Positions 30,477-52,894 of a DNA stretch of 64,000 nucleotides are shown here, piece after piece (the stretch's first letter is position 1; each line of letters opens with the position of its first letter). The stretch comes from Candidatus Poribacteria bacterium (lineage in GTDB: Bacteria > Poribacteria > WGA-4E > GCA-2687025), in NCBI GenBank assembly GCA_016866785.1, contig VGLH01000002.1, positions 14,086 to 78,085 of the forward strand. Direction: 5' to 3'. The notes beneath the pieces were generated by a model. The model did not search any database. It was given only the letters and a program-made list of their open reading frames with translations, and was not told where the DNA came from. The position numbers and the translations under genes were made by a program.

Positions 30477-30654
30477 CTCCGGCTCCCGTGATGCCGTCGG
30501 TCGTGACAACTGTCGCGAGTTTCGCTCATCGCGGACCCATCCGCAACCTGCGCTGCGGCTCGGCTCGGTCGTTGTCGGAGTACGACCCGTGTGATACGCT
30601 CTGGCGCATCGGCACGGGCCCGATCCGTTCGACCCCACGACAAGGAGCGACGCT

Positions 30655-31665
30655 GTGGCAAGCACACCGATACGCGGCGCAGTCATCGGCTACGGGGCAG
30701 CCTTCAACATGGGCAAGCATCACGCCGTTGCCATGAACCGAACCGAGGGCATTCAGACCGTCGCGATCGTTGACGTGGACAAGGCTCGCACTGAAGCCGC
30801 CAAGGCTGACTTCCCGGATGTGCAAACGTTCAACAGCGTTGCCGACCTCATCTCGTGGGGCGAGTTCGATGTCGCGGTCAATGTCCTGCCGCACTCGCTG
30901 CACCATGGACCGACGCTCGCGTGTCTCCAAGCTGGCAAGGGAGCCATCGTCGAGAAGCCGTTCACGATCACCATCGCTGAAGCCACCGAGCTGATCGAGG
31001 CGGCGAAACAGAAGAACGTGGTATTGACGGTTCATCACAACCGACGATGGGACGCCGACTTCTGGACTCTGAAGGGACTCGTCGCCAGCGGCGTCATCGG
31101 TAAGGTCTTCAATATCGAGATGTGGGGCGGCGGCTACGGCAAGCCGAATCCCAACTGGTGGCGCAGCGTCAAGCGTGTCAGCGGCGGCGCGTTCTACGAC
31201 TGGGGAGCCCATTTCCTCGACTGGCTGCTGAACGTCATTCCCGAGAAGATGGTCAGCGTGACGGGCTTCTTCCACGATCTCGTGTGGCACGACATCAGCA
31301 ATGAGGATCACGTCCACGCCATCATCCGCTTCGCCAGCGGATGCAGCGCCGACATCCAGATGTCGCAGATCGCCAAGATCGGCAAGCCGAGATGGCGTCT
31401 GCTGGGTTCGCACGGCGCGATCATCGACGCGGGCGGGAACAAGTTCAAGGTCTACTCCGAGGTTCCCGGACAGGAGAAGGAACAGGAAGTCGCCTACTCC
31501 GGCCGACCTGGACCGTCGTTCTACGAGAACTTCGTCGCCCACGTGAACGACGGAACGCCGCTCATCGTGACCGCCGAGGAAGCGCGGCGCGTCATCGCCG
31601 TCATGGAGCTCGCCGAGAAGTCGTCGCGCACCCATCAGGCGGAGACGATCCCGTACGAGTTCTAG
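30655..31665 (+). CDS. Gfo/Idh/MocA family oxidoreductase
   Basis: GTG start 7 nt after AAGGAG. GAVIGYGAAFNMGKHHA Rossmann motif. EKP motif. Confidence 0.85.
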   Translation: MASTPIRGAVIGYGAAFNMGKHHAVAMNRTEGIQTVAIVDVDKARTEAAKADFPDVQTFNSVADLISWGEFDVAVNVLPHSLHHGPTLACLQAGKGAIVEKPFTITIAEATELIEAAKQKNVVLTVHHNRRWDADFWTLKGLVASGVIGKVFNIEMWGGGYGKPNPNWWRSVKRVSGGAFYDWGAHFLDWLLNVIPEKMVSVTGFFHDLVWHDISNEDHVHAIIRFASGCSADIQMSQIAKIGKPRWRLLGSHGAIIDAGGNKFKVYSEVPGQEKEQEVAYSGRPGPSFYENFVAHVNDGTPLIVTAEEARRVIAVMELAEKSSRTHQAETIPYEF

Positions 31666-31691
31666 CTCGAAGGCGTGCTGAGGAAGGCTCG

Positions 31692-33185
31692 ATGCGGATC
31701 GGTGTCGCGCAGTTCTATCACGAATCCAACTCGTTCTCGTCGACCTCGACGCGAGAGGTGGATTTTCGCGACACCTCCGCATCGGGACCTGCCCTTCTCG
31801 ACAGATGGCGCGATACGAACAGCGAAATCGCCGGAGTCATCGACGCAGCCGAGGAGTCGGGATCAACGTCTCAGCCCGTCGAGCTGGTTCCCCTGACGGG
31901 AGCGTGGGCATGGCCCTCCGGTCCCATCGTGGACGAGTTCTACGTCCGCTTTCGCAACGATCTGGCGCAGCGCGTTGCGAGCGCCGGTCTGGACGGGCTC
32001 CTGCTTTCGTTGCACGGAGCCGCCATCACGACGGCGCGCGCGGACGCCCAAGCAGATCTGTTGGCGGCGATCCGGGGGCGTGTCGGAGCGGCGCTCCCCA
32101 TCGTCTCGACGCTCGACTTCCACGCCAACCTGTCGCCGGAGGTCGTCTCGGCGCTCGATGCGCTCGTCGGGTATCGAACCTATCCGCATGTCGATTACCG
32201 CGAACGCGGGGCCCAGGCGCTGCGACTGACTGCGGAACTGGTCGAGACCGGGCTGAGACCCCAGACCGGCTTCACGCAGCCGCCGATGATGCCGGTCCCG
32301 CAGCGGCAAGGCACGTCGGGCAACCCGATGGCGGCAATCATGGCGCGCGCCCGCGAGATCGAGTCGGCGCCGGACGTGCTCGTCGCGAACGTGTTCGGCG
32401 GGTTTGCCTACGGCGACTCGCCAAGTGCAGGCTTGTCTGTCGCGGTCGTCTCTCGTGAGAGCCACGAAATCGCTCAGAACTACGCCGACGAACTCGCGAT
32501 GATGGCTTGGACGTCACGCGCCGAGTTCGTTCCTGACCTCCTCAGCCCGCGCGACGCCGTGCGGACCGCCTACAGCCACGACAGCGGCTTGTCCGTCCTC
32601 GTGGATGTCGGGGACAACGTGGGGGGCGGTACGCCGGCAGACGGCACGGTGCTTCTCTCGGAACTGCTGAGAGTCCGAGCGGAACGTGCCGCCGTCGTCC
32701 TATGCGACGGCAAGTCGGTGCGCGAGTGCGTGCAGGCGGGCGTTGGCGCGGAAGTCCGCCTGCGAGTCGGCGGCAAGACCGACGGCTGGCACGGCGCGCC
32801 GGTCGCTGTGACGGGACGTGTCCGCATGCTCTTCGACGGCGAGTTCACGAACGTCGGGCCCATGCGCGAGGGAATCACGGAGCGTCAGGGATTGACGACT
32901 CGCGTGACGGTCGGTGGCATCGATCTCCTGCTGACGACGCGTCGATTGCCGCCGTGGAACCTTGAGCAGCTTCGCGCCGTCGGTATTGAGCCGACGCGTC
33001 TGCGTGCGTTCGTCGCGAAGTCCGCCGTGGCGTTCCGAGCCGCATGGGAACCGATTGCGGACCGGGTCATCGAGGTGAACACACCGGGGTTGACGTCTGC
33101 CGATCTCTCCGCGTTCCCGTACAAACACGTTCGCCGACCCGTCTTCCCCCTGGACGAAGCGTGCGCGCCCGGGAGGGATCGGTAG
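31692..33185 (+). CDS. MlrC-like M81 family metallopeptidase
   Basis: Start at ATG with GAGGAAGG upstream. N-terminus MRIGVAQFYHESNSF matches the MlrC/DUF1485 family. Confidence 0.8.
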   Translation: MRIGVAQFYHESNSFSSTSTREVDFRDTSASGPALLDRWRDTNSEIAGVIDAAEESGSTSQPVELVPLTGAWAWPSGPIVDEFYVRFRNDLAQRVASAGLDGLLLSLHGAAITTARADAQADLLAAIRGRVGAALPIVSTLDFHANLSPEVVSALDALVGYRTYPHVDYRERGAQALRLTAELVETGLRPQTGFTQPPMMPVPQRQGTSGNPMAAIMARAREIESAPDVLVANVFGGFAYGDSPSAGLSVAVVSRESHEIAQNYADELAMMAWTSRAEFVPDLLSPRDAVRTAYSHDSGLSVLVDVGDNVGGGTPADGTVLLSELLRVRAERAAVVLCDGKSVRECVQAGVGAEVRLRVGGKTDGWHGAPVAVTGRVRMLFDGEFTNVGPMREGITERQGLTTRVTVGGIDLLLTTRRLPPWNLEQLRAVGIEPTRLRAFVAKSAVAFRAAWEPIADRVIEVNTPGLTSADLSAFPYKHVRRPVFPLDEACAPGRDR

Positions 33186-33763
33186 TGGGCAAGGTTCAGT
33201 CCGAGCCTTTGGTCAAGCCGATCTGCGGGGCTCTCTTCATCGACCCGATGGTCCTTGAGCAGGCGTGGGTTGCGCTCGAAGAGATGCTGGGTCCGCGACA
33301 AGATACCTCGGAGCCGGTGGCTTTCACGTACTCGACGTACTACGATGCCGAGATGGGCCCGGGAATCCGCCGCTGCTACGCTTCGTTCGCCAGCCCTGTG
33401 GACGCGGGATTCCTCGCGTCTGCCAAGCACGCGACGAACCGCATCGAGCGAACGCTGGCGCAGCCCGACGGCCGCCGACGCGTCAACCTCGACATCGGCT
33501 ATCTCGGCGCTGGGCAGGTCGTTCTCGCCACGACGAAGGGCGTCAGCCATCGTGTTGCCATCGGCAGAGGAATCTACGGCGAGCTCACCTACACGTTCGC
33601 GGAGGGCGAGTACCGACCGCTTCCGTGGACGTACCCCGACTACCGCGACGAAGGCACGCGGTCGTTCTTCCTTCAGGTGCGATCCGACTACATGAGGCAG
33701 CATCAGGCGTGGAGCAGCTCTCCCGGAGCTCGCCACTTCACGCGACGGAGAGAGAGTGCATGA
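33185..33763 (+). CDS. hypothetical protein (DUF, ~190 aa), translationally coupled
   Basis: GTG overlapping the upstream stop (TAGTG). Conserved-looking core (PICGALFIDP...NLDIGYLGAGQVVLATTKG). Start uncertain. Confidence 0.45.
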   Translation: MGKVQSEPLVKPICGALFIDPMVLEQAWVALEEMLGPRQDTSEPVAFTYSTYYDAEMGPGIRRCYASFASPVDAGFLASAKHATNRIERTLAQPDGRRRVNLDIGYLGAGQVVLATTKGVSHRVAIGRGIYGELTYTFAEGEYRPLPWTYPDYRDEGTRSFFLQVRSDYMRQHQAWSSSPGARHFTRRRESA

Positions 33764-35730
33764 ATCGCCACGGTGCAACGCGAATCCTTCTGCTCTGTGC
33801 GTTGGCAGCCTGGGGCTCCCAGGCATTCGGATGGGGGTATGAGGCGCACAAGCTGATAACGCGGAAGGCGTGCGACGCAATGCCGGAGCCGGTCCGCGGC
33901 TTCTTCATCTCGCATTCCGACGAGCTCGCCGAGCGCTCCCTCGATCCCGATTCCTGGCGCAAGACGGACAAACTGGAGCACTCCAACCACTTCCTGGATA
34001 TCGACTACAGCGGCTTCGGTCCGTACCCGTTCTCGGACCTTCCCAGGTCGTACGCCGAGGCGTCCGCGAAGTTCGGCGAGGAGGCACTCGACCAGTACGG
34101 GCGGCTTCCCTGGCGCATCGACCGCTACATGGAGGATGCCGTCCGCGCGATCAAGTCGGGGGACCCGGCGAAGGTCGTCGGCGTTCTCGGAGCTTACAGC
34201 CACTACATCGAAGACGCGCACATGCCGCTTCACGTCGTGATGAACTTCAACGGTCAGTTGACCGGGCAGCGAGGCGTCCACGGACGGTGGGAGTGGAACA
34301 TGGTTGACCGGCATCTGCCGGAGCTCAGCGCGGCAGTGCTCGCGGATCCGTCGAAGGTCGCACCGGTAGAACAGCCGTTGGAGACGGCGTTCGAGATCAT
34401 CTTCGACTCGTACGGCAAGCACTTCGCTCTGCTGGACGCCGACCGCCACGCGGCGGCTGGCATCGAGGGCGACCTGGAGGAGAGCGACGTCTACTTCGAC
34501 CGGCTGTGGCGCCGTTCCAACGAGCTTTGCATCGCGCAAATGACAAGAGCCGCTGAGTACGTGGCGAGTTTTTGGACGACCGCATGGGAGCGCGCAGGCA
34601 AGCCGAAACTCCCTGCGGACGTTCCAGCACGGCGCGAACGGGCCCGCGACCTGGGAATCCGCATCGGGTCTCGAACGCCGGGTCCTCTGAACGCGATCAC
34701 CGACGTCCTGGGCGTACGGGTCGGTCACGTCACTCATGTCCGAGGTAGCGGCAAGAACGCGGTCCGCACCGGCGTTACGGCGATCGTGCCTCGCGATGAC
34801 ATCTGGCACCGGAAAGCTCCCGCTGCTGTGTTCGCCATGAACAGCAACGGCGAAGTGATGGGTTCCCACTGGATCCGGGAAGCCGGCAGCCTCGAAGTGC
34901 CCATCGTGCTCACCACGACCCTGAACGTCCCGGCGGCGGCGGCTGGTGTAGTCGAATGGATGGTTCGTGTGCACCCGTCGATGGGCAGAGGCGACGACGT
35001 CGTGCTGCCCGTCGTCGCGGAGTGCGACGATTCTGGGCTCAACGACTCCCAGGCTCGCGCGGTCACAGCCGAGGACACCGTTCGCGCGATTGAGACATCT
35101 CGGTCGGGCCCCGCCGAGGAGGGGTCGGTCGGGGCTGGTACCGGGCTCAGGAGCTACGGGTTCAAGGGCGGCATCGGCACGGCGTCGCGCGTCATTGAGG
35201 GCGGATACACGGTGGGTGCCCTGGTCGAGGCGAACGGCGGACGTAGGTCAGAGCTTCGAGTCGATGGCGTCCCCGTCGGCGAGGAGATCGCCGACCTGCT
35301 GCCGACTCGACCGGATCCCGAGAAGTCGTTCATCGTCGTCGTGGCGACGGACGCGCCCCTCGATGCCCGTCAACTGGAGCGCGTCGCCAAGCGGGCGTCA
35401 TGGGGCATCGCCCGAACCGGAACCGTCGGTAGACACGGCAGCGGCGACTTCGTGATCGCCTTTTCCACCGCGAACCCGATGCCCCACATGCCCGACGAAC
35501 CGACGTATCCCGGTGTCTCCTTCGTCGACGCGCACATCAACGAGCTCTTCGCAGCAACCATCGAGGCGACGGAGGAAGCGATCGTCAACGCGCTCGTCGC
35601 GGCGGAGACGATGGTCGGCTACGGCGGCGCGACAGCGCACGAACTGCCGAGTGATCGGCTGCGCGCGATCCTGTACCGCCATGGCAGGCTCTTCCCGTCC
35701 TCGACCCAGCCAGTGGAGGCGGCGGAATGA
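33760..35730 (+). CDS. secreted fusion protein: N-terminal S1/P1 nuclease-like domain + C-terminal DmpA/S58 (P1 family) peptidase domain
   Basis: ATGA overlap with the upstream gene; GGAGAGAG RBS. Signal peptide, then WGYEAHKLI and HYIEDAHMPLH (S1/P1 nuclease zinc ligand motifs). Then ITDVLGVRVGHVTH...TGVTAIVP, typical of DmpA/L-aminopeptidase. Confidence 0.75.
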   Translation: MNRHGATRILLLCALAAWGSQAFGWGYEAHKLITRKACDAMPEPVRGFFISHSDELAERSLDPDSWRKTDKLEHSNHFLDIDYSGFGPYPFSDLPRSYAEASAKFGEEALDQYGRLPWRIDRYMEDAVRAIKSGDPAKVVGVLGAYSHYIEDAHMPLHVVMNFNGQLTGQRGVHGRWEWNMVDRHLPELSAAVLADPSKVAPVEQPLETAFEIIFDSYGKHFALLDADRHAAAGIEGDLEESDVYFDRLWRRSNELCIAQMTRAAEYVASFWTTAWERAGKPKLPADVPARRERARDLGIRIGSRTPGPLNAITDVLGVRVGHVTHVRGSGKNAVRTGVTAIVPRDDIWHRKAPAAVFAMNSNGEVMGSHWIREAGSLEVPIVLTTTLNVPAAAAGVVEWMVRVHPSMGRGDDVVLPVVAECDDSGLNDSQARAVTAEDTVRAIETSRSGPAEEGSVGAGTGLRSYGFKGGIGTASRVIEGGYTVGALVEANGGRRSELRVDGVPVGEEIADLLPTRPDPEKSFIVVVATDAPLDARQLERVAKRASWGIARTGTVGRHGSGDFVIAFSTANPMPHMPDEPTYPGVSFVDAHINELFAATIEATEEAIVNALVAAETMVGYGGATAHELPSDRLRAILYRHGRLFPSSTQPVEAAE

Positions 35731-41400: not shown

Positions 41401-42101
41401 TCATCGCTTGAGGCGCCGCCGCCGAACGACCGCCACGATGACCAGGTACGCGACTGCAGCCATACCGGCGACCGTAGAGCCTCCGAGGAGACCGTGCCCG
41501 AACCGCGGATCAGCCGAAGCGCCTTGCGCGACCAGACGCGACGCGTACCCGAAGTACGTGTAGGCGGGACGCCGGGTACCATGGCAACCGCTGAAGCCGC
41601 AGCATAGGGCAGGAACCGTATCGGCGTCAGTCCAAAGGCGTAGTTCAGCAAGCCGAATGGAAAGAGCGGCACCAGGCGCACGACCACCACGTACTTCCAG
41701 CCGTCCTGCTCTATGCCCGACCATACGACGCGCGCGCGCGATCCCAGCGCTCGATCGAACCAGTCGCCAGCGGCATGTCGCGCGATCAGGAAGCTCACGC
41801 TGGACGCCACCATGGCGCTCGCCAGTGTCAGCGACGCACCGACCGTCACGCCGAACACGTAGCCACCGGCGAGCGTCAGCGGGATACCGGGCAGCGCCAT
41901 CGCCGCGATGAATACGTACGCAGCGCAATACGCGAGGAGCGCCCAGCTTCCCATCTTGGAGAGTCGCGCAGCCAGCGCGTCGGAACCGACCTCATGGCGT
42001 AGGAGCCAGAAGCCTCCGATGGCGACCGCCAGCCAGGCGACGACGGCCAGGGCGCGTCGCAGCGCCACACCGCGTGACGCCTGTCTCTGGCGACCTCTCA
42101 T
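41401..42101 (-). pseudogene. TVP38/TMEM64 (DedA-like) family membrane protein, apparent -1 frameshift near 41557-41570
   Basis: N-terminal ~180 aa in one frame (MRGRQRQ...RLVPLFPFGLLNYAFGLTPIRF...AMVPG). The conserved C-terminal TM segment (AYTYFGYASRLVAQGA...MAAVAYLVIVAVVRRRRLKR*) continues in another frame ending at 41401. Read-through in the first frame gives an R/P-rich junk tail that overlaps dnaK. Confidence 0.5.
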
Positions 42102-42868
42102 GAGCTCGTGGGTTTCCGCGCGGTGATGTTGATGCGGTCGGAGTTGCCGTGGTAGCGCGAGAACGTCCAGGCGTCGAACGCGCTCAGGTAGTCGAACCCG
42201 CGCTCGACCAATATGCCCTTGATCTCCGGGACTTCGAAGATCCTCTGGATGTGCGTCTCGACGTGTCGCTCGAACAATCCATCCGGGCGCGCGATGAAGA
42301 ACGTGAGCTCGGTGCAGCAGGTGGCGTCGTGGCGAGAGTAGACGTTCTTCCAGACGTAGGAGTATCTCGGCTCGTTCTCGGCGAACGTGTTCATGTGGAA
42401 GTGCTCGACGATGTTCCGCTCCGTGGTCACATCGAACGCGAACAAACCGCCTGGCTTGAGAACACGCCACACGCAATCGACCACTTGGCGGAGCTCGCGC
42501 GCGTCGCGCGCGTAGTTGATGCTGTCGTAAAGGCACAGGACGGCATCGAAGGGCTCCCCGAACGAGAAGTCACGCATGTCGCCCTGCACCCACTCGACCG
42601 TGACGCCGCGCTGGCGTGCCTTGTCCGCGCCGACATTCATCATCTCCTGAGCGCGGTCGAGCCCCACGACCTCGAATCCACGCTCAGCCAGCGGCACGGC
42701 GACCGAGCCCGTCCCGCACGCCAGGTCCAGCAGCCGTCTGGGCTTGACTTCGTAGTGCCGGAAGAGATCGATCACGTAGTCCACCCACCGACGGTAGTTG
42801 ACGTTGGACATTATCTCGTCGTAGGCGTACGCGAACCGGCTGTATGGCACGACGTCCGACACGCGCAT
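42098..42868 (-). CDS. class I SAM-dependent methyltransferase
   Basis: Motif I LLDLACGTGSVAVPLAERG and motif II region DAVLCLYDSINY. Stop overlaps the downstream TVP38 start (ATGA). Start uncertain (42868 or 42976). Confidence 0.7.
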   Translation of the reverse strand: MRVSDVVPYSRFAYAYDEIMSNVNYRRWVDYVIDLFRHYEVKPRRLLDLACGTGSVAVPLAERGFEVVGLDRAQEMMNVGADKARQRGVTVEWVQGDMRDFSFGEPFDAVLCLYDSINYARDARELRQVVDCVWRVLKPGGLFAFDVTTERNIVEHFHMNTFAENEPRYSYVWKNVYSRHDATCCTELTFFIARPDGLFERHVETHIQRIFEVPEIKGILVERGFDYLSAFDAWTFSRYHGNSDRINITARKPTSS

Positions 42869-42890
42869 CTCCGAAGGGATGGGCAGATCG

Positions 42891-43823
42891 TCAGGAACCC
42901 AAGGGAATGTCACGCAGCACCAGCCACGCCAACGATCCGCAGGCTTGGACGATGCTCGCCACAATCCCCGGCACAAGCGAGCGAGAGCGCACGAACAGGT
43001 ATCCGTTCGCCGCTCCCAGCGCTACGAGAGGCACAAACGACAGAGCCGATCCGGACGCCACCGCAAACGCCACGGCGGCTCCCCACACCGATAGATGGAC
43101 TGTGCGTTTCTGACGCAGCATCCGAAGCAGCATGCCTCGGAAGAAGATCTCGCTCCCGAGGGGTCCCAGCGCGAGCACCGTCGGGAGAATCAGCACCCAC
43201 AGCGGGTCAGATGTCTGCGTCGGAAACAGTTGAAGCACCTGTTGACGCTCCTCGCGCAGCACCGGCACGAGCGACGCCGCCAGCTCGAACAACTCCCCAA
43301 ACGCGAATACCGCCGCGCCGGCTCCGACCCCCATCACGAGTGCGCCGCGCAGATCGTCTGTGTGGAGCCCGATGTCCTCGAGCGACCAGCGGAACCTTCC
43401 GTTCAACATCCAGATGCACAGGACGGCGAAGAGCGCCGACTTCAACAGCTCGAGCGACCAGAGGATGTCCGGGGCAAGGAGCGCTTGCAGCGTGCGCGGC
43501 TCGGACGTATCGGTCGGGAGCTTGCCCATGGCCGTCAAGACGACCATCCCGACCATGAAGCTGATGACCCACGACACGAAGAAGATGGCGACGAGGTCGC
43601 GCGCGCGCCAATCGGCACGTGTTCGCCGAGGCATCTCCTCGCGAGCGATCATCAACTCGCAGTGGCTGCACTGACGAGTGTCCACGGGGTTGTGCCCGTC
43701 GCATCGCGGACACCGCCAGTAATACGGTGGCGGAACCCGCCAGACAAAGAACGGGAGACCCAGCACGCCGGCAGTCACGACGAAGAGCAAGCCCTGAAAG
43801 ATGCTTTGGGCGATCGCGTCCAT
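42891..43823 (-). CDS. CPBP family intramembrane metalloprotease (CAAX protease/Abi-like) with N-terminal zinc ribbon
   Basis: N-terminal CPRCDGHN...CSHC. Multiple TM helices. EIFFRGML (EExxFRG-type) and ANGYLF motifs. Confidence 0.7.
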   Translation of the reverse strand: MDAIAQSIFQGLLFVVTAGVLGLPFFVWRVPPPYYWRCPRCDGHNPVDTRQCSHCELMIAREEMPRRTRADWRARDLVAIFFVSWVISFMVGMVVLTAMGKLPTDTSEPRTLQALLAPDILWSLELLKSALFAVLCIWMLNGRFRWSLEDIGLHTDDLRGALVMGVGAGAAVFAFGELFELAASLVPVLREERQQVLQLFPTQTSDPLWVLILPTVLALGPLGSEIFFRGMLLRMLRQKRTVHLSVWGAAVAFAVASGSALSFVPLVALGAANGYLFVRSRSLVPGIVASIVQACGSLAWLVLRDIPLGS

Positions 43824-43916: not shown

Positions 43917-44834
43917 CTACGACAGACGCGCCTGGATGCCGGTCTGCTCCGCGAGACGGAGGAGGCTCGCCAGGCGCTCTGGAGACTGGGTTCCGCCGGA
44001 CACGGTGTAGGGCATTCCGAGCCATTCGTACTTGGCTCCGGCTGAGGCGTTGTAGGGCAGGAAGGAGATGGCAGTCAGACCTGTATCTCGCATGAAGTCC
44101 AGGATTCCGACTACGTTCTCGTCAGTGTCCGTCACCGATGGAATCAGCGGAACGCGAATCTCGACGTTTCGTCCCGCGAGGCGGCGCGCGTTCTCGAGGA
44201 TTCGCCGGTTCGATGCGCCGGTCCATGACCGGTGCGCCTCGTCATCGATGAGCTTGAGGTCGTAGAGCACGAGGTCGGTGTGTTCGAGCACTCGCGCCAA
44301 CGGCTCCCAGGCGGACATGCCGCATGTCTCGATGGCGGTATGGATGCCGCGCTCTCGGCAGCCTTGGGCGATCGCCGCAGCGAACGCGTGCTGCAGCGTG
44401 ACCTCGCCGCCGGTCAGTGTGATGCCGCCGCCGGAATGATGGAAGAAAGCCTTCATCCGCGACGCCTGATCGATGACCGCGCCCGCTGTGGTCTCGTACC
44501 CCTTGATGGCGACCGCCTGGTTCTGGCACACGGAGACGCACCGCCCGCAGGCGTCGCAACTCTCCCAGTGGACGTGGTGCTGCTCGTCTGCGACCTCGTG
44601 AACGTCGTTGGGGCAGACTTCGGCGCATGCCCCGCAGAACGCGCAACGGCTCCCGGCGAACACGAGCTCGGGGTCGGCGTCCTGCGACTCCGGGCTGTGG
44701 CACCATGCACACGTCAGCGGACAGCCTTTGAGATAGACCGCCATGCGCACGCCGGGACCGTCGTGCACGGCGAACGTATCGACGTCGAACACGACGCCAC
44801 GGACTTCGCCCGAGGTTCCAGACGGATCGGTCAT
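43917..44834 (-). CDS. glycyl-radical enzyme activating protein (radical SAM, PFL2-type with two extra 4Fe-4S motifs)
   Basis: CPLTCAWC (CxxxCxxC) radical-SAM motif. CAFCGACAEVCP and CDACGRCVSVC ferredoxin motifs. Start overlaps the GRE stop (ATGA at 44831-44834). Confidence 0.85.
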   Translation of the reverse strand: MTDPSGTSGEVRGVVFDVDTFAVHDGPGVRMAVYLKGCPLTCAWCHSPESQDADPELVFAGSRCAFCGACAEVCPNDVHEVADEQHHVHWESCDACGRCVSVCQNQAVAIKGYETTAGAVIDQASRMKAFFHHSGGGITLTGGEVTLQHAFAAAIAQGCRERGIHTAIETCGMSAWEPLARVLEHTDLVLYDLKLIDDEAHRSWTGASNRRILENARRLAGRNVEIRVPLIPSVTDTDENVVGILDFMRDTGLTAISFLPYNASAGAKYEWLGMPYTVSGGTQSPERLASLLRLAEQTGIQARLS

Positions 44835-47140
44835 GACCGACCCTCCTGGCGGCGGATGTGGTGATCCTGTTGCTCGCGGCTGAGCATCGTGAAGTAGGCG
44901 CACCATCCTCCCATGCGAACGCGAAGGGAGCGGTACCGGTCCGGGTCGCGTTGAGCCGCGCGGAGCTCCTCCGTGTCGGCGACGGTGAGCGTCATCATCG
45001 CGCCGCCTGCATCGACGAACCCGCGCACCAGCCCGGACATGCGCGTCGTGCCCTCCTCTCCAGCCACCAGATGCCGCGCCACTCGCAGGTCGATGGGACC
45101 GCCGGCAGGCAGGTTCTCGTGGTGCATCTTGGAGTAGGACAGGATCGCGGCGGTCAAGCCGGCAGCATCGCGTCCGAGCGCCGGTGAGAAGTTGCTCGCG
45201 ACGGGTTCCCCGGATCGACGACCATCGGGCGACGCGCCCAGTCCTTCGCCGATCCCGATGTACCACGAGAACGTGCCGACGCCGCATGGAAAGCGGATCA
45301 GCGAGGCGTGAGACACCGCGTGCCGCGCCACGGCATTGGTGAAGGCGTCGATGACCTGTCGTCCCATCGCGTCGGCGACCGGGTCATCGTTCCCGTACTT
45401 CGGCGCGGCAATGAGCTTGGCGCGCAGCGGTCCCCAGCCCTCGAAGTCCACGTCTAAAGCGTCGCACAGCTCAGTCATCGACGCCTCGCGCCGCTCGAAG
45501 ACGGTCTGTCGGATCGCCGTCAGGGAATCGATGGCGTGCGACGCGCTCTCGGCGAGCATACCGAACGTGCGATAGCGGGCTCCGCCCGCCGTGAGATCGC
45601 GGCGGCTTTCGACGGCTCCTTCGATCAGGGCGCTCAGCAGTGGCACGGGCGCGATGGTCGATCGGTTATCGACGGTCGAAGCCACGCGCTGGACGACGTA
45701 GCCGACCATCGCGTCGATCTGCTCCTCGAACGCTTGCCACACGTCGTCGAAGGACGAGAAACGACGCGGATCGCCTGGATCGGGTCCGTGCGTGCCCGGA
45801 GGCGGGTCGCCCTCGCCTCGTCGATGGTTCCCTCGGTTCAGCGCCCTCTCGAGGCATAGCATCAGGCTCAGACGCTGGAACCGGAAGTCGGTCCGCCCGG
45901 GGATGATCACTTCCCAGCAGCCGTCGTTCGTGTAGTCGCGCGCGTCGGGCTGGTCGATCCCGATGCGCATGAGAGCCGGAACTAGCGCTTCGTCGTTGAA
46001 GAACGCCGGCATTCCGCCACCGTCCTTCAGCACTTCGCACGACGCGCGGATGAGTTCCTCCGGCGACCGCCGGTGGACGCGCACCGTAAGCAGCGGATTC
46101 GTCATCCGGTTCCGTCGGTAGCTCTCCAGCAGCAAGAACGTGAGTGGATTCGTGCCGTCGTCGCCGTTCGGCGTCACGCCGCCGACGATGATGTTCTGCA
46201 GCCAGTGGTTTGTGGCATCGACGCTGTCGCGACGGGTTCCGCGCTGGGAGGATGTGTCGTGCCGCGTCTTGCTGCTTGGGCCCTTGGGCTCATCCTCGCG
46301 CGCCTCAGGGCGTTGATCGTCGGTCGTCTTGGCTCGCTCGTTGAACTTCAGCGTGAAGCAGTCGACGAGCTCCGCGCCAAAGCCGAGGTCGATGGTTCCC
46401 TGCGTGAGATCTGTCTCGAGGTAGGGAGCGGCGTACTGGTCGAGACGCCCGACGGCGTTCCCGTTCATGGTCGAGTGGAAGATCATGTGGAGCAGCCACA
46501 CGCTCTGCAGCGCCTGCCAGAACGTCTGGGCTGGTTCGCTGGGAACCTGCCGCAGATTCGCCGCCATGGTGCGAAGCTCGACGCGGCGCTCCAGCGTCAG
46601 GTCAGCGCGTTCGGCTTCGGAGTCACAGCGCTGCGACAGCCGATCGGCGAAATCGCAGACAGCGTCGCACGCGATTTCCACCGACCGAAGAAAGGCGAGT
46701 TCGTCTTGGGTCCGTGCCGACGTCGCTTGGCGCCGGGCGTCTTCGGCGATGGCGCGGAGCCCCCTGCCGAGCAGGCGAGGGTAGTCCGGGACGATGTGAC
46801 CAAAGACCGAATGGATGCTCAGTCCCCGGCTGGATGCCGCAGCCTTCTCCTCGGGAGTCACGTAGTCTGGGAACCCGCGTTCGGCGTGGATGCGTGGGTT
46901 CTCGAGCGTCATCGATCCGGCGATGAGCTGATCGTCCCACAGATCGGTCGGCATCGCCTCCAGCTTGGCGCAAATCGCGAGCGCCTTTCGGACCGCCAAT
47001 GGCTCCGACATGTGCGCCTCGTCGATGCGAGGTGGGCAGCGGAACTCGGCGGGAGGCTGCTCCATGGCGTCGCGGACGCGGCGACGCAGCGACTCCACGC
47101 GAGGCGTGCTGGGCAGCTTGCGGATCACATCGGCGTTCAT
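44831..47140 (-). CDS. glycyl radical enzyme, PFL2/glycerol-dehydratase-like family, substrate unknown
   Basis: Start at ATG 47140 with GAGGAGAG upstream. Cys loop NDGCWEV. C-terminal Gly loop RVRMGGWCAYF aligned to canonical RVAGYSAFF. ~770 aa. Confidence 0.8.
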   Translation of the reverse strand: MNADVIRKLPSTPRVESLRRRVRDAMEQPPAEFRCPPRIDEAHMSEPLAVRKALAICAKLEAMPTDLWDDQLIAGSMTLENPRIHAERGFPDYVTPEEKAAASSRGLSIHSVFGHIVPDYPRLLGRGLRAIAEDARRQATSARTQDELAFLRSVEIACDAVCDFADRLSQRCDSEAERADLTLERRVELRTMAANLRQVPSEPAQTFWQALQSVWLLHMIFHSTMNGNAVGRLDQYAAPYLETDLTQGTIDLGFGAELVDCFTLKFNERAKTTDDQRPEAREDEPKGPSSKTRHDTSSQRGTRRDSVDATNHWLQNIIVGGVTPNGDDGTNPLTFLLLESYRRNRMTNPLLTVRVHRRSPEELIRASCEVLKDGGGMPAFFNDEALVPALMRIGIDQPDARDYTNDGCWEVIIPGRTDFRFQRLSLMLCLERALNRGNHRRGEGDPPPGTHGPDPGDPRRFSSFDDVWQAFEEQIDAMVGYVVQRVASTVDNRSTIAPVPLLSALIEGAVESRRDLTAGGARYRTFGMLAESASHAIDSLTAIRQTVFERREASMTELCDALDVDFEGWGPLRAKLIAAPKYGNDDPVADAMGRQVIDAFTNAVARHAVSHASLIRFPCGVGTFSWYIGIGEGLGASPDGRRSGEPVASNFSPALGRDAAGLTAAILSYSKMHHENLPAGGPIDLRVARHLVAGEEGTTRMSGLVRGFVDAGGAMMTLTVADTEELRAAQRDPDRYRSLRVRMGGWCAYFTMLSREQQDHHIRRQEGRS

Positions 47141-47438
47141 CGTCGGACTCTCCTCTCGCCGACTCGGCTGAAAACCGAGCCCCGGGTCATCGCTCCACAG
47201 TCGCCGTCGAGCCCTTGTCGCTCCGTGTCCGGTGGCTCTCAGATGCCATGGGCCCAATCGATTCCACTGGGACAAAGGACGGAAGCGCGGGTTGGCGCGT
47301 CGCCTGCCCGCATCCGGCGCACGGCATATGGGAGCCCTTCCGGCTTCGAACCCCCTGGGCAATGAGCGCCACCACAGCCGCGCTCACCGTGGCGAACGCA
47401 GCGGCTTCCTGCCACATGAGCCGCCTCCTCTCGACCGC

Positions 47439-49634
47439 CTAGACCAGCGCCGTCGTCACCGCCTTCGCGATGAACGCTGCAGCATAGGCAAGGACAGCCA
47501 TATAGCTCCACGCGAACACGGGCCAGCGCCACGAGCCCGTCTCACGCCAGATCGTCGCCACGGTAGACATGCACTGCAGCGCGATCACATAGAACACCAG
47601 CAGCGACACGACCACCGGCAACGTGAACACGGGATTCCCGGCGTGCGGACCCAACTGCCAGGTGGCAGACCGGAGACGATCTGCCAGCGGCGAAGTGTCC
47701 TCGGTCACATCGCCGACGCTGTAGATCGTTCCGAGCGTGCTGACGAACACCTCTCTGGCGGCAAACGACGACAAGATGCCGATGCCGATCCTCCAGTCGA
47801 AGCCCAGCGGCGAGATGACCGGTTCCATCAGGCTTCCCAGTCTACCTGCGAAGCTGACGCGCAGCATGGCGGACGCCTCTTCCGCTTCCAGCGACGCGAG
47901 TTGCTCGTCTACGTCGAACGCTTGTTCGGCGGCGATCAGATCGCGACGCGACGCGTACTCGCCCGCGATGACCGGCGACTTGGGATAGGATGCCAGGAAC
48001 CACATGATCACAGACACGCTCAGGATCACGGTTCCAGCCCGTTGAAGGAACATCCGCGCGCGGTCCCACATGTTCAGCAGAACCGACCGGATGTTCGGCA
48101 GTCGATAGGGAGGCAGTTCCAGAATCAGCGCCGGTGTTTCGCTGCGGAAAAGCGTCTTCTTCAGAAGCAGCGCGACACCGATGGCGATGACGACGCCAGC
48201 CGCGTAGAGGGTTCCCAAGACCAACGCCTTCGTCATCGCAGACCCCGCGATGAAAGTCGCGATGATGAGCGTATAGACAGGCAGGCGAGCGCTGCAGGTC
48301 ATTAGCGGCGCGACGAGGATCGTGACGAACCGGTCCTTCCGGTTCTCGATGGTCCGAGTCGCCATGATGCCCGGCACGGCGCACGCGAACGAGCTCAGGA
48401 GGGGGATGAACGCCTTGCCGTGCAAGCCCACGCGCCGCATCAGCCGGTCCATCATGAACGCGGCGCGCGCCATGTAGCCGGTGTCTTCCAGCAACCCGAT
48501 GAAAAGAAACAGAAACAGAATCTGGGGCAGGAAGATGACCACGGAACCGACTCCGGCGACGACGCCATCCACGAGCAGGTCTCGGAAGGGCCCGGGACCC
48601 ATGCGAGACGACAACGCCGCTGCGAGGGCGGTCATTCCTCGGTCGATCCAATCCATCGGAACGGCAGCCCATGCGAAGATCGCCTGAAAGACCAGACCCA
48701 TCAGGATGAGAAACGTCAACGGGCCGGCGACTCGATGGGTCAGGATCGCATCGGCGCGGTCGCTGCGGCTGGGTCGGGTCGCGTCACGGCGTTGCACGCA
48801 ATCCCGGGTGATCCCCCGAATCCAGCGATATCTGGCTTCCGCCTCGAAGGCTTCCGGGTCGAACCCCTCGGCAGTCAGCGTGGAGCGTCCCGTCTCTATG
48901 GCGCTGCGTAACGCTTCCGACGTCGGACGTCCCCAGACCTCCCCGACGGACACAGCGCCTAGACACCGAATGGCTTCGGCGTCGGCCTGTGCCGTCGTGT
49001 ATCCTCGATCCGACCGGAGGAGAGCGGCGACCTCGGCGATAGCGCGTTCCGCCCCTTCGGAGAGTCTCCATCGCCTTTCGGGCGGAACCGGGGGATCGCC
49101 GGACGCCAGAAGCGACAGGAGACCGTCGATTCCGATTCCTCTGCTGGCGCACATCGGCACGACGGGAACGCCGAGCCTGCGAGACAACTCCGGGGCGTCG
49201 ATGACAACGCCTGAACGCTCCGCCACGTCGATCATGTTCAGCGCGATGATCGTCGGCGCCCCCAGGTCGAGCACCTGTCCGGCAAGATATAGGTTGCGGT
49301 CGAGGTTGCTGGCATCGACGACGACGACAACGACGGTCGTTCGCGGCGTGTCTTTCGCTTCGCCCAGGATAACGGTCCGCGCGATGCGTTCCTCGGGCGA
49401 ACGGACGGTGAGGCTGTATGTCCCCGGAAGGTCGAGGACGTCGTGGAGGGCAGTTCCGAGCTGGAGGATACCCATCTTGCGCTCGACGGTGACGCCAGGG
49501 TAGTTGCCCACCTTCTGGCGCAGCCCAGTCAGCGCGTTGAAGAGCGTGGTCTTACCGGAGTTCGGGTTGCCAGCAAGCGCGATAACGTGCTTGGAAGACG
49601 CGGCGGCGACTGCGCCCGCAGCGGCCTGCCTCAT
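47439..49634 (-). CDS. feoB: ferrous iron transport protein B
   Basis: N-terminal GTPase (ALAGNPNSGKTTLFNALTG) followed by a polytopic membrane domain. 731 aa. Confidence 0.9.
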   Translation of the reverse strand: MRQAAAGAVAAASSKHVIALAGNPNSGKTTLFNALTGLRQKVGNYPGVTVERKMGILQLGTALHDVLDLPGTYSLTVRSPEERIARTVILGEAKDTPRTTVVVVVVDASNLDRNLYLAGQVLDLGAPTIIALNMIDVAERSGVVIDAPELSRRLGVPVVPMCASRGIGIDGLLSLLASGDPPVPPERRWRLSEGAERAIAEVAALLRSDRGYTTAQADAEAIRCLGAVSVGEVWGRPTSEALRSAIETGRSTLTAEGFDPEAFEAEARYRWIRGITRDCVQRRDATRPSRSDRADAILTHRVAGPLTFLILMGLVFQAIFAWAAVPMDWIDRGMTALAAALSSRMGPGPFRDLLVDGVVAGVGSVVIFLPQILFLFLFIGLLEDTGYMARAAFMMDRLMRRVGLHGKAFIPLLSSFACAVPGIMATRTIENRKDRFVTILVAPLMTCSARLPVYTLIIATFIAGSAMTKALVLGTLYAAGVVIAIGVALLLKKTLFRSETPALILELPPYRLPNIRSVLLNMWDRARMFLQRAGTVILSVSVIMWFLASYPKSPVIAGEYASRRDLIAAEQAFDVDEQLASLEAEEASAMLRVSFAGRLGSLMEPVISPLGFDWRIGIGILSSFAAREVFVSTLGTIYSVGDVTEDTSPLADRLRSATWQLGPHAGNPVFTLPVVVSLLVFYVIALQCMSTVATIWRETGSWRWPVFAWSYMAVLAYAAAFIAKAVTTALV

Positions 49635-50001: not shown

Positions 50002-50032
50002 AATCTAGCACTTGGGGCACATCGCTGTCAAC
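50002..50032 (-). promoter_or_regulatory. sigma70-like promoter candidate (TTGACA-18 nt-TAGATT) upstream of feoA
   Basis: Minus strand reads TTGACAgcgatgtgccccaagtgcTAGATT. It overlaps the GHL10 stop codon and lies upstream of the hairpin/T-tract. Confidence 0.35.
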
Positions 50033-51965
50033 GGTCGGTGCGGGTCGTATCAGCCGCACTCGACGAGTCGGACGTCGCTCCGAGGCGCAGCGCCGGCAGA
50101 TGGTTGGACAGCACGTCCGCGTCGTAGTTGAAGAGGACGAAGCCCTGCGCCCCGAGCTCGCGCAACGTCACGACCTGACGCACGACCTGTTCGGAGGTCA
50201 GTCCTGGCGCTGAAGCCCCGATGCCCGGGTACAGCGGCACCCTCCCGCCGACCGTCCCCAACTGCGCCTCCACGAGCCGGCGAAACCGCGCGTCGTTGTC
50301 CGTGTAGTCCATCGGGCACACGAAGTCGAGATAGCCTTCCTGAATCCATGCCGCCCAATCCTGCCCGACGGTATCGCGACACGTTGGGTAGTCCGCGAAG
50401 ACAGCAGCCGACACCTGAACCCCGGGTCGCGCTTCGCGAACGCGCTGGTTGACGGCCCGCACCAGGGCGGTGATCTGGTTTCGTCGCCAATCGGCGAACG
50501 CAGCGGCGAGGCTTCCCGTCGTGGCATCGGCGGGCCACTTGCGGACGAGCTTGCCCGTGGCTCGCTGGAACCGCTCAAGGCACCCGTCGCAGAAGCACGA
50601 ATCCGAGTCCGGGTACCGAATGTAGTCGAAATGGATTCCGTCCACCGGGTATCGTCGTACGACTTCGACCATCGACTCCGTCTCGAGCTCCAGGTTCCGT
50701 GGATCCGACGGGCAGAGCCACAGCCGTTCGGATCCATCGCGGTGTCGCTGCAGCCTCTTCTCAGCCCGCATGCGAGCGACGAAGCTGTCGGGAGCAGTGG
50801 AGAGGCCCCAGTTGACTTTCCACACGTGCACGGCGATCCCATGGCGGCGAGCGGCGTCCAGGCATTCTTGGATCTGGTCGCCTCGCTCGGAGACCTCCGC
50901 AGCAACCGGCAGGATGTCGCTCGGGTAGTAGGCGAGCCCTCCCCACAGCATGTTGGGCAGCACCGCGTTGAACCCCTGGTCCGACAAGCGACGAAGGGCT
51001 TCGTCCCACGTCAGCCCCGGCACGCCGAACGCCGAATGGCACCAGACCGCCCGGAACTCATCGGGCTTTGGCGGAACCGACGCATAGTACACCGAGAGCG
51101 ATGCGCGTCGCGCTTGGGAGGCGAGGGCAAGTGCGTCGCCCGGGCTCCCAGCGTCCAGTGCTCGCTTCGCCGCAGCCGCGAGGTTCGAGCTCTCCGATCC
51201 GTACGGCTGATCGTTGACGCCGACTGCCGAAGGCATCGCGGGCGGGAGCTCGTCGAAAGCGGGCTCAACCCATGTCTTCGACAAGCCGGGCAGCAGACGA
51301 CATAGCAGCGCGCGAACGAACTGCACCTTGGCGTCGCGATCTCCCGGCAGCAGCACGTGACCGATGAACGCTCCGTTCGCATTGACCGTCACTGCGGGGA
51401 GCCCGGTGTCCTCGCCCGATGCGCGTTCCCAGTAGCCAATCGCCTGTGCGCTCGTCGCTCTCGGCACGTTGACGTTCCACGAGCCCTGCAGCACCCGTTC
51501 CGGCGAACCCGCGAACGAGCGCTCAAACCGGATCGCCGAATACTCACCGGGCTCGCGTTCCTGCCGCCATGTCGAGCCCTCGATGCCAAGCAGCCCCGCC
51601 AACGTGCTCGGCAGCGAATAGCAGACGATGACTTTCCCGCCGGCTCTGACGAAGCGAACCAGCTCGCGCCCGGCTGCAGGCGGAAGGTCCGGCGTGTGGG
51701 CGAGCACCGCGACGCGCACGCCGTCGAGACTCCCGACGCGCACGTCGCCCGCTGTCACCACGTCCCTTGGAAGGCGGGCTGCCTCCAAGACTCGCGACCA
51801 CTCCCGCGCGAAGCGTTCCGTCTGGGAGCTGCCTGCTCGGATAATGCGGATCAGCGGCGCGTTGGACGCGGCGTGGCTGTCACGCGCTGGCGTCAGCAGG
51901 AGCGCCGTCGCAAAGGCGGTGACAATGCTCAGCAGATGGGCTGCGGGTGTGCACCTGTGGGTCAT
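50028..51965 (-). CDS. secreted GHL10 (glycoside hydrolase-like family 10, DUF187/YngK-like) protein
   Basis: Signal peptide. GIHFDYIRYPDS motif characteristic of GHL10. Start overlaps the era stop (ATGA). Confidence 0.65.
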   Translation of the reverse strand: MTHRCTPAAHLLSIVTAFATALLLTPARDSHAASNAPLIRIIRAGSSQTERFAREWSRVLEAARLPRDVVTAGDVRVGSLDGVRVAVLAHTPDLPPAAGRELVRFVRAGGKVIVCYSLPSTLAGLLGIEGSTWRQEREPGEYSAIRFERSFAGSPERVLQGSWNVNVPRATSAQAIGYWERASGEDTGLPAVTVNANGAFIGHVLLPGDRDAKVQFVRALLCRLLPGLSKTWVEPAFDELPPAMPSAVGVNDQPYGSESSNLAAAAKRALDAGSPGDALALASQARRASLSVYYASVPPKPDEFRAVWCHSAFGVPGLTWDEALRRLSDQGFNAVLPNMLWGGLAYYPSDILPVAAEVSERGDQIQECLDAARRHGIAVHVWKVNWGLSTAPDSFVARMRAEKRLQRHRDGSERLWLCPSDPRNLELETESMVEVVRRYPVDGIHFDYIRYPDSDSCFCDGCLERFQRATGKLVRKWPADATTGSLAAAFADWRRNQITALVRAVNQRVREARPGVQVSAAVFADYPTCRDTVGQDWAAWIQEGYLDFVCPMDYTDNDARFRRLVEAQLGTVGGRVPLYPGIGASAPGLTSEQVVRQVVTLRELGAQGFVLFNYDADVLSNHLPALRLGATSDSSSAADTTRTDR

Positions 51966-52894
51966 TCGTACCCGAACTCGCGCAGCATCGCGTCTTTCTC
52001 GCGCCAGCCTTCACGAACACCGACCCACAGATCGAGGAAGACCTTCGTGCCGAGGAACTGCTCAATGTCTTCTCGCGCCGACTGCCCGATGGACTTGAGC
52101 ATCTCGCCTCCCCGACCGACGACGATCATCTTCTGATTCGCACGCTCCACGTAGATTGATGCGCGGATGTAGATGCGGTTCGCGCCTTCCTCTGCCACGA
52201 ACTCCTCGATCACGACGGACGAGGCGTACGGGACCTCCTGGCGCGTGCGCAGAAACACCTTCTCGCGGATCGTCTCCGCGACGAAGAATCTCTCCGGGAG
52301 CTCGCTCATCTGGTCAGGTGGAAAGAGCATGGGGCTCTCAGGAAGGTACTTCTCCATGCAGTCGAGGAGTCGGTTCAGACCCTCGCCACGCCGGGCAGCC
52401 ACGGGCACCATCTCGGCGAAGAGGTCTCGCTTCCCGTACTCGTCGAGGATCGGTAGCAGCAGCGGCTTGGCGATGCGATCGATCTTATTCAGGACGAGCA
52501 ACACGGGTCCTCGGTGCCCAGGGAGCTGCTGGAGAATCACATCGTCTGCGCGGTGGGGCGCGGTGCTGGCGTCGATGACATAGAGGACGAGGTCTGCGTC
52601 GCGCGCGGCATCGAACGCCATCTTGACCATGCGCTGCTGGAGGCGGTATCGTGGCTCCACCACACCTGGCGTGTCGAGAAACACGAACTGCGCGCGCGAT
52701 GTCGTCAGGATCCCCGAGATCCGGTTCCGCGTCGTCTGCGGCTTGCTCGTAACGGCAGCGAGCTTGCTGCCGACCAGGGCGTTGAGCAGCGTGGACTTCC
52801 CGACGTTCGGCCTGCCGAGCAGGCTGGCGTATCCAGCCCGGAACGGCTGAGCGGACGCACCCGATTCGAGCGTCTGTGTCGAGTCATCAGACAT
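51962..52894 (-). CDS. era: GTPase Era
   Basis: GRPNVGKSTLLNAL, DTPG, NKID GTPase motifs plus C-terminal KH domain. 310 aa. Confidence 0.93.
   Translation of the reverse strand: MSDDSTQTLESGASAQPFRAGYASLLGRPNVGKSTLLNALVGSKLAAVTSKPQTTRNRISGILTTSRAQFVFLDTPGVVEPRYRLQQRMVKMAFDAARDADLVLYVIDASTAPHRADDVILQQLPGHRGPVLLVLNKIDRIAKPLLLPILDEYGKRDLFAEMVPVAARRGEGLNRLLDCMEKYLPESPMLFPPDQMSELPERFFVAETIREKVFLRTRQEVPYASSVVIEEFVAEEGANRIYIRASIYVERANQKMIVVGRGGEMLKSIGQSAREDIEQFLGTKVFLDLWVGVREGWREKDAMLREFGYE

Follow-up and report, generated by a model that had tools for sequence, protein, structure and literature searches.

Glycyl-radical enzymes (GREs) that act as 1,2-eliminases or isomerases, namely glycerol dehydratase (GD), propanediol dehydratase (PD), HypD, CutC, IslA, HpsG, YbiW, PflD, and HplG, all keep a CxE motif in the loop that carries the catalytic cysteine, and His164 of GD has been proposed to give a proton to the hydroxyl that leaves (PMC13450708). 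Two of these enzymes, YbiW and PflD of Escherichia coli, are PFL2-type proteins with the CxE motif and the His that act on sugar derivatives as anhydro-hexitol-6-phosphate ring-opening isomerases and are encoded beside sugar-transport and aldolase genes (PMC13450708). The function of another PFL2-type enzyme, that of Archaeoglobus fulgidus, is still debated, and entire GRE clades remain without validation (PMC13450708), so that an unassigned GRE is in itself no surprise. Here we describe a GRE of 769 aa (positions 44831-47140) and its radical-SAM (S-adenosylmethionine) activase of 305 aa (43917-44834), both encoded on the minus strand of a 64,000-nucleotide stretch of a Candidatus Poribacteria bacterium contig (VGLH01000002.1, forward-strand positions 14,086 to 78,085, assembly GCA_016866785.1; hereafter the window). 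Judged from its sequence, this GRE is probably a radical dehydratase, eliminase, or ring-opening isomerase that acts on a hydroxylated, probably carbohydrate-derived substrate, and it belongs to a large, conserved family within a clade, here called the CWE clade, that is wholly uncharacterised.

The GRE has the parts that define the superfamily: a PFL-like barrel domain (Pfam PF02901, 428 bits), a C-terminal glycine-radical domain (PF01228, 53 bits), a Cys loop, and a variant of the RVxG[YFW] fingerprint. Its Cys loop, N405-D-G-C408-W-E410-V (45908..45928, minus strand), was identified by alignment and holds the thiyl-radical cysteine along with the glutamate from the CxE motif (C408-W-E410) that is kept in the eliminase/isomerase group. 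C408 aligns with C433 of GD and with the cysteine in the Cys loop of both CutC and HypD, and it is present in 148/148 sequences of the alignment used for the tree described below; C408, W409, and E410 show no variation among 38 members of the family or among the 35 CWE-clade sequences. The Gly loop, R740-V-R-M-G-G745-W (44903..44923, minus strand), is a variant (RVRMGGW, against the usual RVAGY) that is invariant in the family, and its G745, which in the alignments falls on the glycine that bears the radical in GD, CutC, and HypD, is kept in 34 of the 35 CWE-clade sequences. HMMER alignments to the structures 1r8w and 9f3w place His115 (46796..46798, minus strand), also invariant in the family, at the position of the general acid His164 of GD.

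The activase start codon overlaps the GRE stop codon (ATGA), suggesting translational coupling, and a strong ribosome-binding site (RBS), GAGAGGAGAG, precedes the GRE start at 47140. The activase matches TIGR02494 (PFLE/PFLC type) with 299.7 bits against a cut-off of 174. It carries a radical-SAM cluster motif, C38x3C42x2C45 (44700..44723, minus strand), a GGE at residue 142, and a ferredoxin-like insert (44523..44645, minus strand; Pfam Fer4 families) with two CX2CX2CX3C motifs, at residues 64-74 and 93-103, for auxiliary [4Fe-4S] clusters. An earlier note on this DNA had named an NDGCWEV Cys loop, a CxxxCxxC motif, and two ferredoxin-like motifs as signs of a genuine GRE-activase pair. The Cys loop is present at residues 405-411, both catalytic loops stand up to alignment, and the activase motifs, the domains, and the coupling were all found, so the claim of a genuine pair is upheld. 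Going by these features, the two genes probably form a functional, oxygen-sensitive glycyl-radical module.

Names in public databases point to a different identity. JGI calls many family members (P0017, P0027, P0030, and others) 'pyruvate-formate lyase' or 'formate C-acetyltransferase', and the Pfam PFL-like domain is compatible with a pyruvate (or 2-oxoacid) formate-lyase (PFL). However, the Cys loop of PFL contains a Cys418-Cys419 pair (PMC12338860), whereas that of the GRE contains a single cysteine (GCWE), which indicates that it is not a PFL-type acyl-transfer enzyme. On the PFL model TIGR01255, the GRE reaches only 75 of the 994 bits required, and the match to PflB in the Protein Data Bank (PDB), at 67 bits, covers the C-terminal Gly-radical part only. 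We therefore regard a formate-lyase as scarcely credible, and the family has probably been misnamed as PFL in a systematic way. The E. coli pflD product bears a name of this kind too, as does the PflD-type model PRK09983, which is annotated as formate C-acetyltransferase.

We then compared the GRE with the characterised enzymes one by one. Each functional equivalog of NCBIfam reaches at most 30-34% of its cut-off: the HpsG model gives 340 bits (cut-off 1000), HypD 333 (1100), HpfG 318 (1000), CutC (TIGR04394) 317 (1050), and PRK09983 293 (1109). Even the broad PFL2/glycerol dehydratase subfamily model, TIGR01774, gives only 427.4 bits, under its cut-off of 678.2. Ten other uncharacterised PFL2-type GREs from a genome scan score higher on this model (nine at 713-821 bits and the tenth at 639), making the GRE an outlier even among unassigned GREs. 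The PFL2-family label that the earlier note gave it thus holds as a resemblance but not as membership by this model. The best PDB sequence matches are CutC (9f3w, 320 bits), A. fulgidus PFL2 (2f3o, 304 bits), and GD (299 bits), and most of the PDB alignments are interrupted at query residues ~271 to 314. An AlphaFold2 model of the GRE (pLDDT 76.6, pTM 0.81) matched more than 50 GRE chains in Foldseek with a probability of 1.00, the top match being 1,2-propanediol dehydratase; all PFL2-type eliminases and isomerases matched alike (TM score ~0.66, 19-25% identity over the whole chain). Such flat scores across families confirm the superfamily and single out no nearest functional relative.

Could the GRE nevertheless be a diverged orthologue of a characterised eliminase or isomerase (GD/PD, CutC, HypD, HpsG/HpfG, IslA, YbiW/PflD, or HplG)? 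These enzymes are its best NCBIfam and PDB matches and have the catalytic Cys, Glu, and His in common with it, and the top Foldseek match is one of them. GD (Clostridium butyricum, 1r8w) and PD (5i2g, 9rco) have the same ten-stranded PFL-type barrel, again at a TM score of ~0.66, their catalytic Cys, CxE Glu, His164 position, and radical Gly align with those of the GRE, and they likewise depend on an activase of their own, which contains a ferredoxin insert for two clusters. However, they are only ~23-25% identical to the GRE over whole-chain Foldseek alignments, the middle residue of CxE is Val in GD but Trp in the GRE, the Gly loop reads RVAGY rather than RMGGW, and the GRE is 27 residues longer before the NHWLQN strand; moreover, neither bacterial microcompartment (BMC) genes nor a diol context lie beside the GRE pair. 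CutC, the top PDB sequence match, uses the same Cys, Glu, and Gly machinery, but its Asp216 position is His in the GRE, its T502 position is Gln, and the BMC genes are again missing. A. fulgidus PFL2, the second-best full-length PDB match, resembles the GRE in the DGC.E surroundings of its catalytic Cys and in the Trp that follows its radical Gly (RVAGW), but it has CVE instead of CWE and groups with conventional PFL2 enzymes in the tree. Finally, YbiW and PflD have gene contexts that resemble those of wider CWE-clade members, but they fall in another clade of the tree, and the phosphotransferase system (PTS), kinase, and aldolase genes do not accompany the GRE family. Given the equivalog scores, the low and flat structural similarity, identities of at most 36% to non-family GREs in a scan of GTDB genomes, the separate clade, and the replaced substrate-contact residues of GD, CutC, and HypD described below, orthology with any of these enzymes is very unlikely.

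A GRE of another mechanistic class (an arylacetate decarboxylase or an X-succinate synthase), or an inactive relic, was also considered. The CxE glutamate is present in GRE decarboxylases too, and the GRE shows divergence in its long insertion and in its Gly loop, whose MGGW is unusual. However, the decarboxylase models IAD and HPAD give only 208 bits (cut-off 1100) and 150 bits (cut-off 1150), BSS (4pkc, 165 bits) and MASS (9o8u, 159 bits) are among the weakest structural matches of the PFL2/X-succinate synthase group, and no small-subunit open reading frames (ORFs) of the kind that accompany GRE decarboxylases and X-succinate synthases were found near the GRE. As for a relic, the ORF is intact, and the 64-74% identity kept across at least five phyla argues for strong purifying selection. 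Both versions are extremely unlikely.

To place the GRE among its relatives, we drew on a search of 5.8 billion proteins, a scan of GTDB species genomes, a scan of JGI metagenomes, and an exhaustive HMMER search of 1.84 billion representatives at 50% identity. The first listed more than 120 clusters (at 90% identity) of proteins of 730-810 aa that are 66-74% identical to the GRE and come from Armatimonadota, Latescibacteria, Anaerolineae/Chloroflexi, Phycisphaerae, Planctomycetota, Brocadiia, and Poribacteria. The GTDB scan found 14 loci at 54-74% identity, everything else being at or below 36%, and the JGI scan gave 291 confirmed family loci; the family is abundant in metagenomes of sediment, groundwater, and wastewater. 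Pairwise identity among 97 full-length members is 64-100% (median 72%), and the mean column identity of a 38-sequence alignment is 73%. Conservation near 70% across at least five phyla indicates strong selection on function. The earlier note had treated the GRE as an orphan, which as a one-off it is not, for it belongs to a family with hundreds of members; the protein itself is 100% identical to the NCBI entry 'hypothetical protein FJZ36_00660, Candidatus Poribacteria bacterium'. Two loci, in an Anaerolineales metagenome-assembled genome (MAG) and a metagenome contig, each contain two GRE-activase pairs (L012, 4140-7454 and 9962-13176; L128), which are family or clade paralogues side by side.

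Among the 1.84 billion representatives, the family forms essentially one cluster at 50% identity, surrounded by a shell of full-length relatives at 33-46% identity that share the DGCWE, NHWLQN, GTF, and RVRMGGW-type motifs. In a midpoint-rooted, distance-based neighbour-joining tree of the C-terminal 440 columns, computed without support values, the CWE clade lies apart from the clade that holds CutC, HypD, GD, PflD, YbiW, and A. fulgidus PFL2, and the family of the GRE is a tight, long-stemmed subclade within it. The clade has its own signature, consisting of CWE, MGGW, and an insertion that is longer by 27 residues. The phylogeny proposed in the earlier note as a check thus did not place the GRE inside any characterised clade, and its statement that the specificity is unassignable agrees with the NCBIfam, PDB, and tree results alike. 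A literature search on this GRE family in Planctomycetes, Armatimonadetes, and Poribacteria, including the AARE paper, found nothing relevant, and a 2026 review of GREs names no matching enzyme (PMC13450708).

The residues that contact the substrate in GD, CutC, and HypD are all replaced in the GRE when it is aligned to the solved enzymes. N228-A229 stand for H281-S282 of GD, L314 for Y339 of GD and F340 of HypD, Q422 for D447 of GD and T502 of CutC, G622 for Y640 of GD and L698 of CutC, and F624 for S642 of GD, I700 of CutC, and T645 of HypD; R423, which is invariant in the family, lies near Y450 of HypD. Contact positions so unlike those of the characterised enzymes suggest a new substrate, which may be anionic. 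Within the CWE clade, the specificity positions vary and the catalytic ones are constant, which is the pattern expected of one chemistry applied to different substrates. The C-S lyases IslA, IseG, and HpsG anchor the sulfonate by an Arg-Gln-Arg triad (PMC13450708); the corresponding positions of the GRE, mapped indirectly and without the IslA sequence, are S111, H115, and ~G622, with no Arg or Gln among them. The clade-specific insertion occupies residues 270-313 (46202..46333, minus strand), has the motif RH.TSSQ.G.RRD..D.TNHW, and ends at the NHWLQN strand. Counted from E268 to Q315, this stretch has a length of 48 residues in the GRE and 21 in E. coli PflD and YbiW, with medians of 46 in the CWE clade and 21 in the other sequences. 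Within the insertion, H294, T296-S297-S298-Q299, G301, R304-D305, D308, and T310-N311-H312-W313 are invariant in the family.

By homology to the characterised enzymes, a mechanism can be proposed. Under anoxia, the radical-SAM [4Fe-4S] cluster of the activase, with its two auxiliary clusters, would cleave SAM and take a hydrogen from Gly745, and the glycyl radical stored there would be handed on to Cys408. The resulting thiyl radical would take a hydrogen from a hydroxyl-bearing carbon of the substrate; Glu410 would then deprotonate that hydroxyl while His115 protonates the neighbouring leaving group, which departs, and the product radical would regain a hydrogen from Cys408. With such a mechanism the GRE would, like GD, HypD, or YbiW, be either a radical 1,2-eliminase/dehydratase or an isomerase that opens a ring. 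The class of substrate is suggested by the gene context of relatives. Five more distant CWE-clade members (33-46% identity) were checked, of which four were informative. The member from Butyricicoccus faecihominis is accompanied by two ribose-type sugar ABC (ATP-binding cassette) systems, DeoR and AraC regulators, an aldehyde dehydrogenase, and an iron-dependent alcohol dehydrogenase (Fe-ADH); that from Clostridium sp. E02 by AraC, a PTS EIIC component, a HAD phosphatase, and a class-I aldolase; and that from a deltaproteobacterium by a CUT1 sugar ABC system, a short-chain dehydrogenase/reductase (SDR), and an aldehyde:ferredoxin oxidoreductase. On a gut metagenome contig (L141, 1153-13976), the member P0325 stands in a run of activase, AraC, ribose-type sugar ABC system, GRE, Zn-ADH, split transketolase, AP_endonuc_2 isomerase, and SDR genes. 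The fifth relative has an AraC regulator only. Such surroundings are usual for the catabolism of carbohydrates or polyols where a carbonyl product would arise from a radical dehydratase or isomerase, and the 'anhydroglycolysis' enzymes PflD and YbiW are a precedent for GREs in sugar operons (PMC13450708). The likeliest substrate is a carbohydrate-derived hydroxylated compound (such as a polyol, a deoxy- or anhydro-sugar, or a hydroxy-acid), to which we give somewhat less than an even chance. The P0325 GRE is present on many contigs (75 index blocks), and it is probably an easier experimental entry to the CWE clade.

The genomic context of the family itself was examined in 101 loci (1.18 Mb in total), whose ORFs were clustered by all-against-all BLASTP; 77 of these were informative upstream, with more than 1.5 kb of sequence on that side. 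The activase lies directly downstream of the GRE in every locus long enough to show it and is the only gene that is always adjacent. The nearest neighbours of the pair are otherwise highly diverse (89 Pfam families among the 117 nearest ORFs), with no dominant family in this tally beyond the partners given here. The commonest partner is a class-V aminotransferase of ~390 aa, whose gene immediately precedes that of the GRE, in the same orientation, in 34 of the 77 informative loci. It is of the alanine/serine-glyoxylate type, with 393 bits to the Nostoc alanine-glyoxylate aminotransferase 1vjo. Other recurrent neighbours are a 417-aa FAD oxidoreductase (PF12831; 19 loci), a 209-aa hydrolase of the metallo-beta-lactamase (MBL) fold (11 loci), uroporphyrinogen decarboxylase (URO-D)-like proteins of three sequence clusters within a few kb (~15 loci), an enolase-superfamily sugar-acid dehydratase (9 loci), ADP-ribosylglycohydrolase-like proteins (7 loci), and a hemerythrin and an M20 peptidase (~5 loci each). 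In ~10 loci, the genes for the FAD oxidoreductase, MBL hydrolase, aminotransferase, GRE, and activase stand in this order as a recurrent operon. Examples occur at about -3.5 kb to +1 kb around the GRE in L002, L020, L083, L084, L106, L107, L110, L114, and L115; a hemerythrin gene, encoded on the opposite strand, often comes after the operon, as does a UDP-GlcNAc 2-epimerase-like gene. The family loci also lie amid glycoside hydrolases (GH31/36, GH38, GH123, fucosidase, cellulases, GH10, GH15), GFO/IDH/MocA oxidoreductases, and sugar-acid dehydratases, in genomes that are rich in glycoside-hydrolase and sugar-acid genes anyway.

The aminotransferase raises the alternative that the GRE works in a pathway of small amino or oxo acids, with the aminotransferase feeding or draining it. 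The GRE might, for example, form pyruvate by elimination of X from a 3-substituted 2-hydroxy acid (glycerate, isoserine, sulfolactate), or it might have glyoxylate or hydroxypyruvate as its product or its substrate. Such a role is consistent with the frequent adjacency, with the aminotransferase being 72-97% identical across loci and close to 1vjo, with adjacency in both Phycisphaerae and Armatimonadota (L005, L013, L020), and with the recurrence of the five-gene operon; the invariant R423 could bind a carboxylate. However, when the GREs are clustered at 70% identity, all aminotransferase-positive loci fall into one of eight clusters, and the sub-lineage of the window GRE lacks the gene. No AGXT-like aminotransferase was found by tblastn in the window, and no copy from the same Poribacteria assembly is among the best 120 matches. 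The aminotransferase family is also very large (7914 of 8000 scored candidates at E <= 1e-100), so that the gene may be a housekeeping one. On balance, we consider this alternative unlikely. A phosphonate pathway, with the aminotransferase as PhnW and the GRE as a C-P lyase acting on 2-hydroxyethylphosphonate, was entertained and dropped. The aminotransferase scores 196 bits on the PhnW-AepZ model (cut-off 361), does not reach the PhnW equivalogs, and gives 113 bits to PhnW 1m32 against 393 to 1vjo; a GRE acting as a C-P lyase was not found in the literature.

Several points weigh against a radical dehydratase, eliminase, or isomerase acting on a carbohydrate-derived compound. The sugar contexts stem from relatives that are only 33-46% identical to the GRE. 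The commonest partner in the family itself, the aminotransferase, suggests a small amino or oxo acid instead of a sugar, and the pair has no conserved neighbour in the sub-lineage of the window GRE. Since CxE is found in decarboxylases as well and a His at the position of His115 is common to most PFL2-like sequences, these motifs are no proof of elimination chemistry. The AlphaFold2 model is of moderate confidence, with the clade-specific insertion below a pLDDT of 50, and the pocket residues were placed by sequence alignment only.

In the window, the GRE pair belongs to a run of nine genes on the minus strand: an Era-type GTPase (51962-52894), a GHL10-like protein (50028-51965; Pfam), feoA (49653-49895/50000; PF04023), feoB (47439-49634; TIGR00437, 541 bits), a 76-aa ORF (47187-47417), the GRE, the activase, a CPBP/Rce1-like protease (42891-43823; PF02517), and a SAM methyltransferase (42098-42976; Pfam). 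ORF listing, translation, Pfam, and NCBIfam thus reproduce the order feoA, feoB, GRE, activase, and CPBP given in the earlier note, and its remark that no neighbour indicates a substrate also stands. An RBS of its own precedes the 76-aa ORF, whose product has a hydrophobic helix at the N terminus and a CAGCG motif. Its sole Pfam match, PF12669 (FeoB_associated), is below threshold (E = 0.14), and the feo operon probably includes it as a third gene.

The earlier note had further suggested that the GRE pair may be co-regulated with ferrous-iron uptake, that is, that feoAB and the pair form an anaerobic iron/Fe-S unit. Ferrous-iron uptake and GREs are both typical of anoxic conditions, and the genes lie on the same strand with 46 bp between the 76-aa ORF and the GRE start. 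This gap contains a 7-bp hairpin without a T run; simple scans found no terminator between feoB and the GRE, and the only promoter-like sites they gave lie upstream of the feoA and CPBP genes. The short gap and the absence of a terminator make local co-transcription possible in this genome, and co-expression under anoxia would be physiologically sensible, yet uninformative on the substrate. However, when FeoA, FeoB, CPBP, GHL10, and the 76-aa ORF of the window were compared by BLAST with all ORFs of the 100 other family loci, none had a match, and the nearest neighbours of the pair are, as noted, extremely diverse. The adjacency is therefore specific to this genome, the proposed link to iron uptake is rejected as a conserved one, and the two sets of genes almost certainly stand together by chance; a functional tie between them is highly improbable.

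The rest of the window was searched for the other partners of the family. By tblastn, the 417-aa FAD oxidoreductase, MBL hydrolase, hemerythrin, M20 peptidase, MR_MLE protein, and ADP-ribosylglycohydrolase were not found in the 64 kb, and the only find among the types sought is a URO-D-like gene (PF01208, E = 4.6e-9) at 62803-63960 on the plus strand, 16 kb from the GRE pair. A 619-aa FAD-dependent oxidoreductase at 28827-30686 (minus strand) shares the family PF12831 with the 417-aa type found upstream of GREs but is a longer, different protein. At 31341-35730 (plus strand), an M81/MlrC-like metallopeptidase (DUF1485 and MlrC_C) is followed by an 821-aa Peptidase_S58 (DmpA-type aminopeptidase) protein and a solute-binding protein; this set resembles a peptide-utilisation cluster and is unrelated to the GRE. 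The annotated genes speak neither for nor against the impression of the earlier note that the rest of the window looks aerobic or microaerobic. A scan of the window and four family loci with Rfam at its gathering thresholds returned one tRNA only, and no riboswitch or regulatory RNA that would hint at a ligand.

A GRE with its activase is a well-known kind of system. What sets this family apart is its size, its conservation, its clade, its mis-naming, and its spread through the glycan-degrading phyla of anoxic sediments, which make it a good target for characterisation, if no surprise to specialists. Where the PFL name is taken at face value in metabolic reconstructions from MAGs, a formate-producing fermentation would be wrongly inferred. 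Identifying the substrate would give the eliminase/isomerase class of GREs a new reaction, or a new specificity at the least, and would open the whole CWE clade, including its tractable members from cultured gut Firmicutes in clear sugar operons. Tentatively, we think it possible that the family and the CWE clade catalyse a glycyl-radical reaction not yet described, for example the dehydration or ring opening of a sugar derivative that stems from polysaccharides, or an elimination on a C3 hydroxy-acid that is connected with glyoxylate/serine transamination. In that case, the 44-residue Arg/Ser/Thr-rich insertion would form a new substrate-binding element, and the enzyme would provide the glycan-degrading Planctomycetota, Armatimonadota, Chloroflexota, and Poribacteria of anoxic sediments with an oxygen-independent route.

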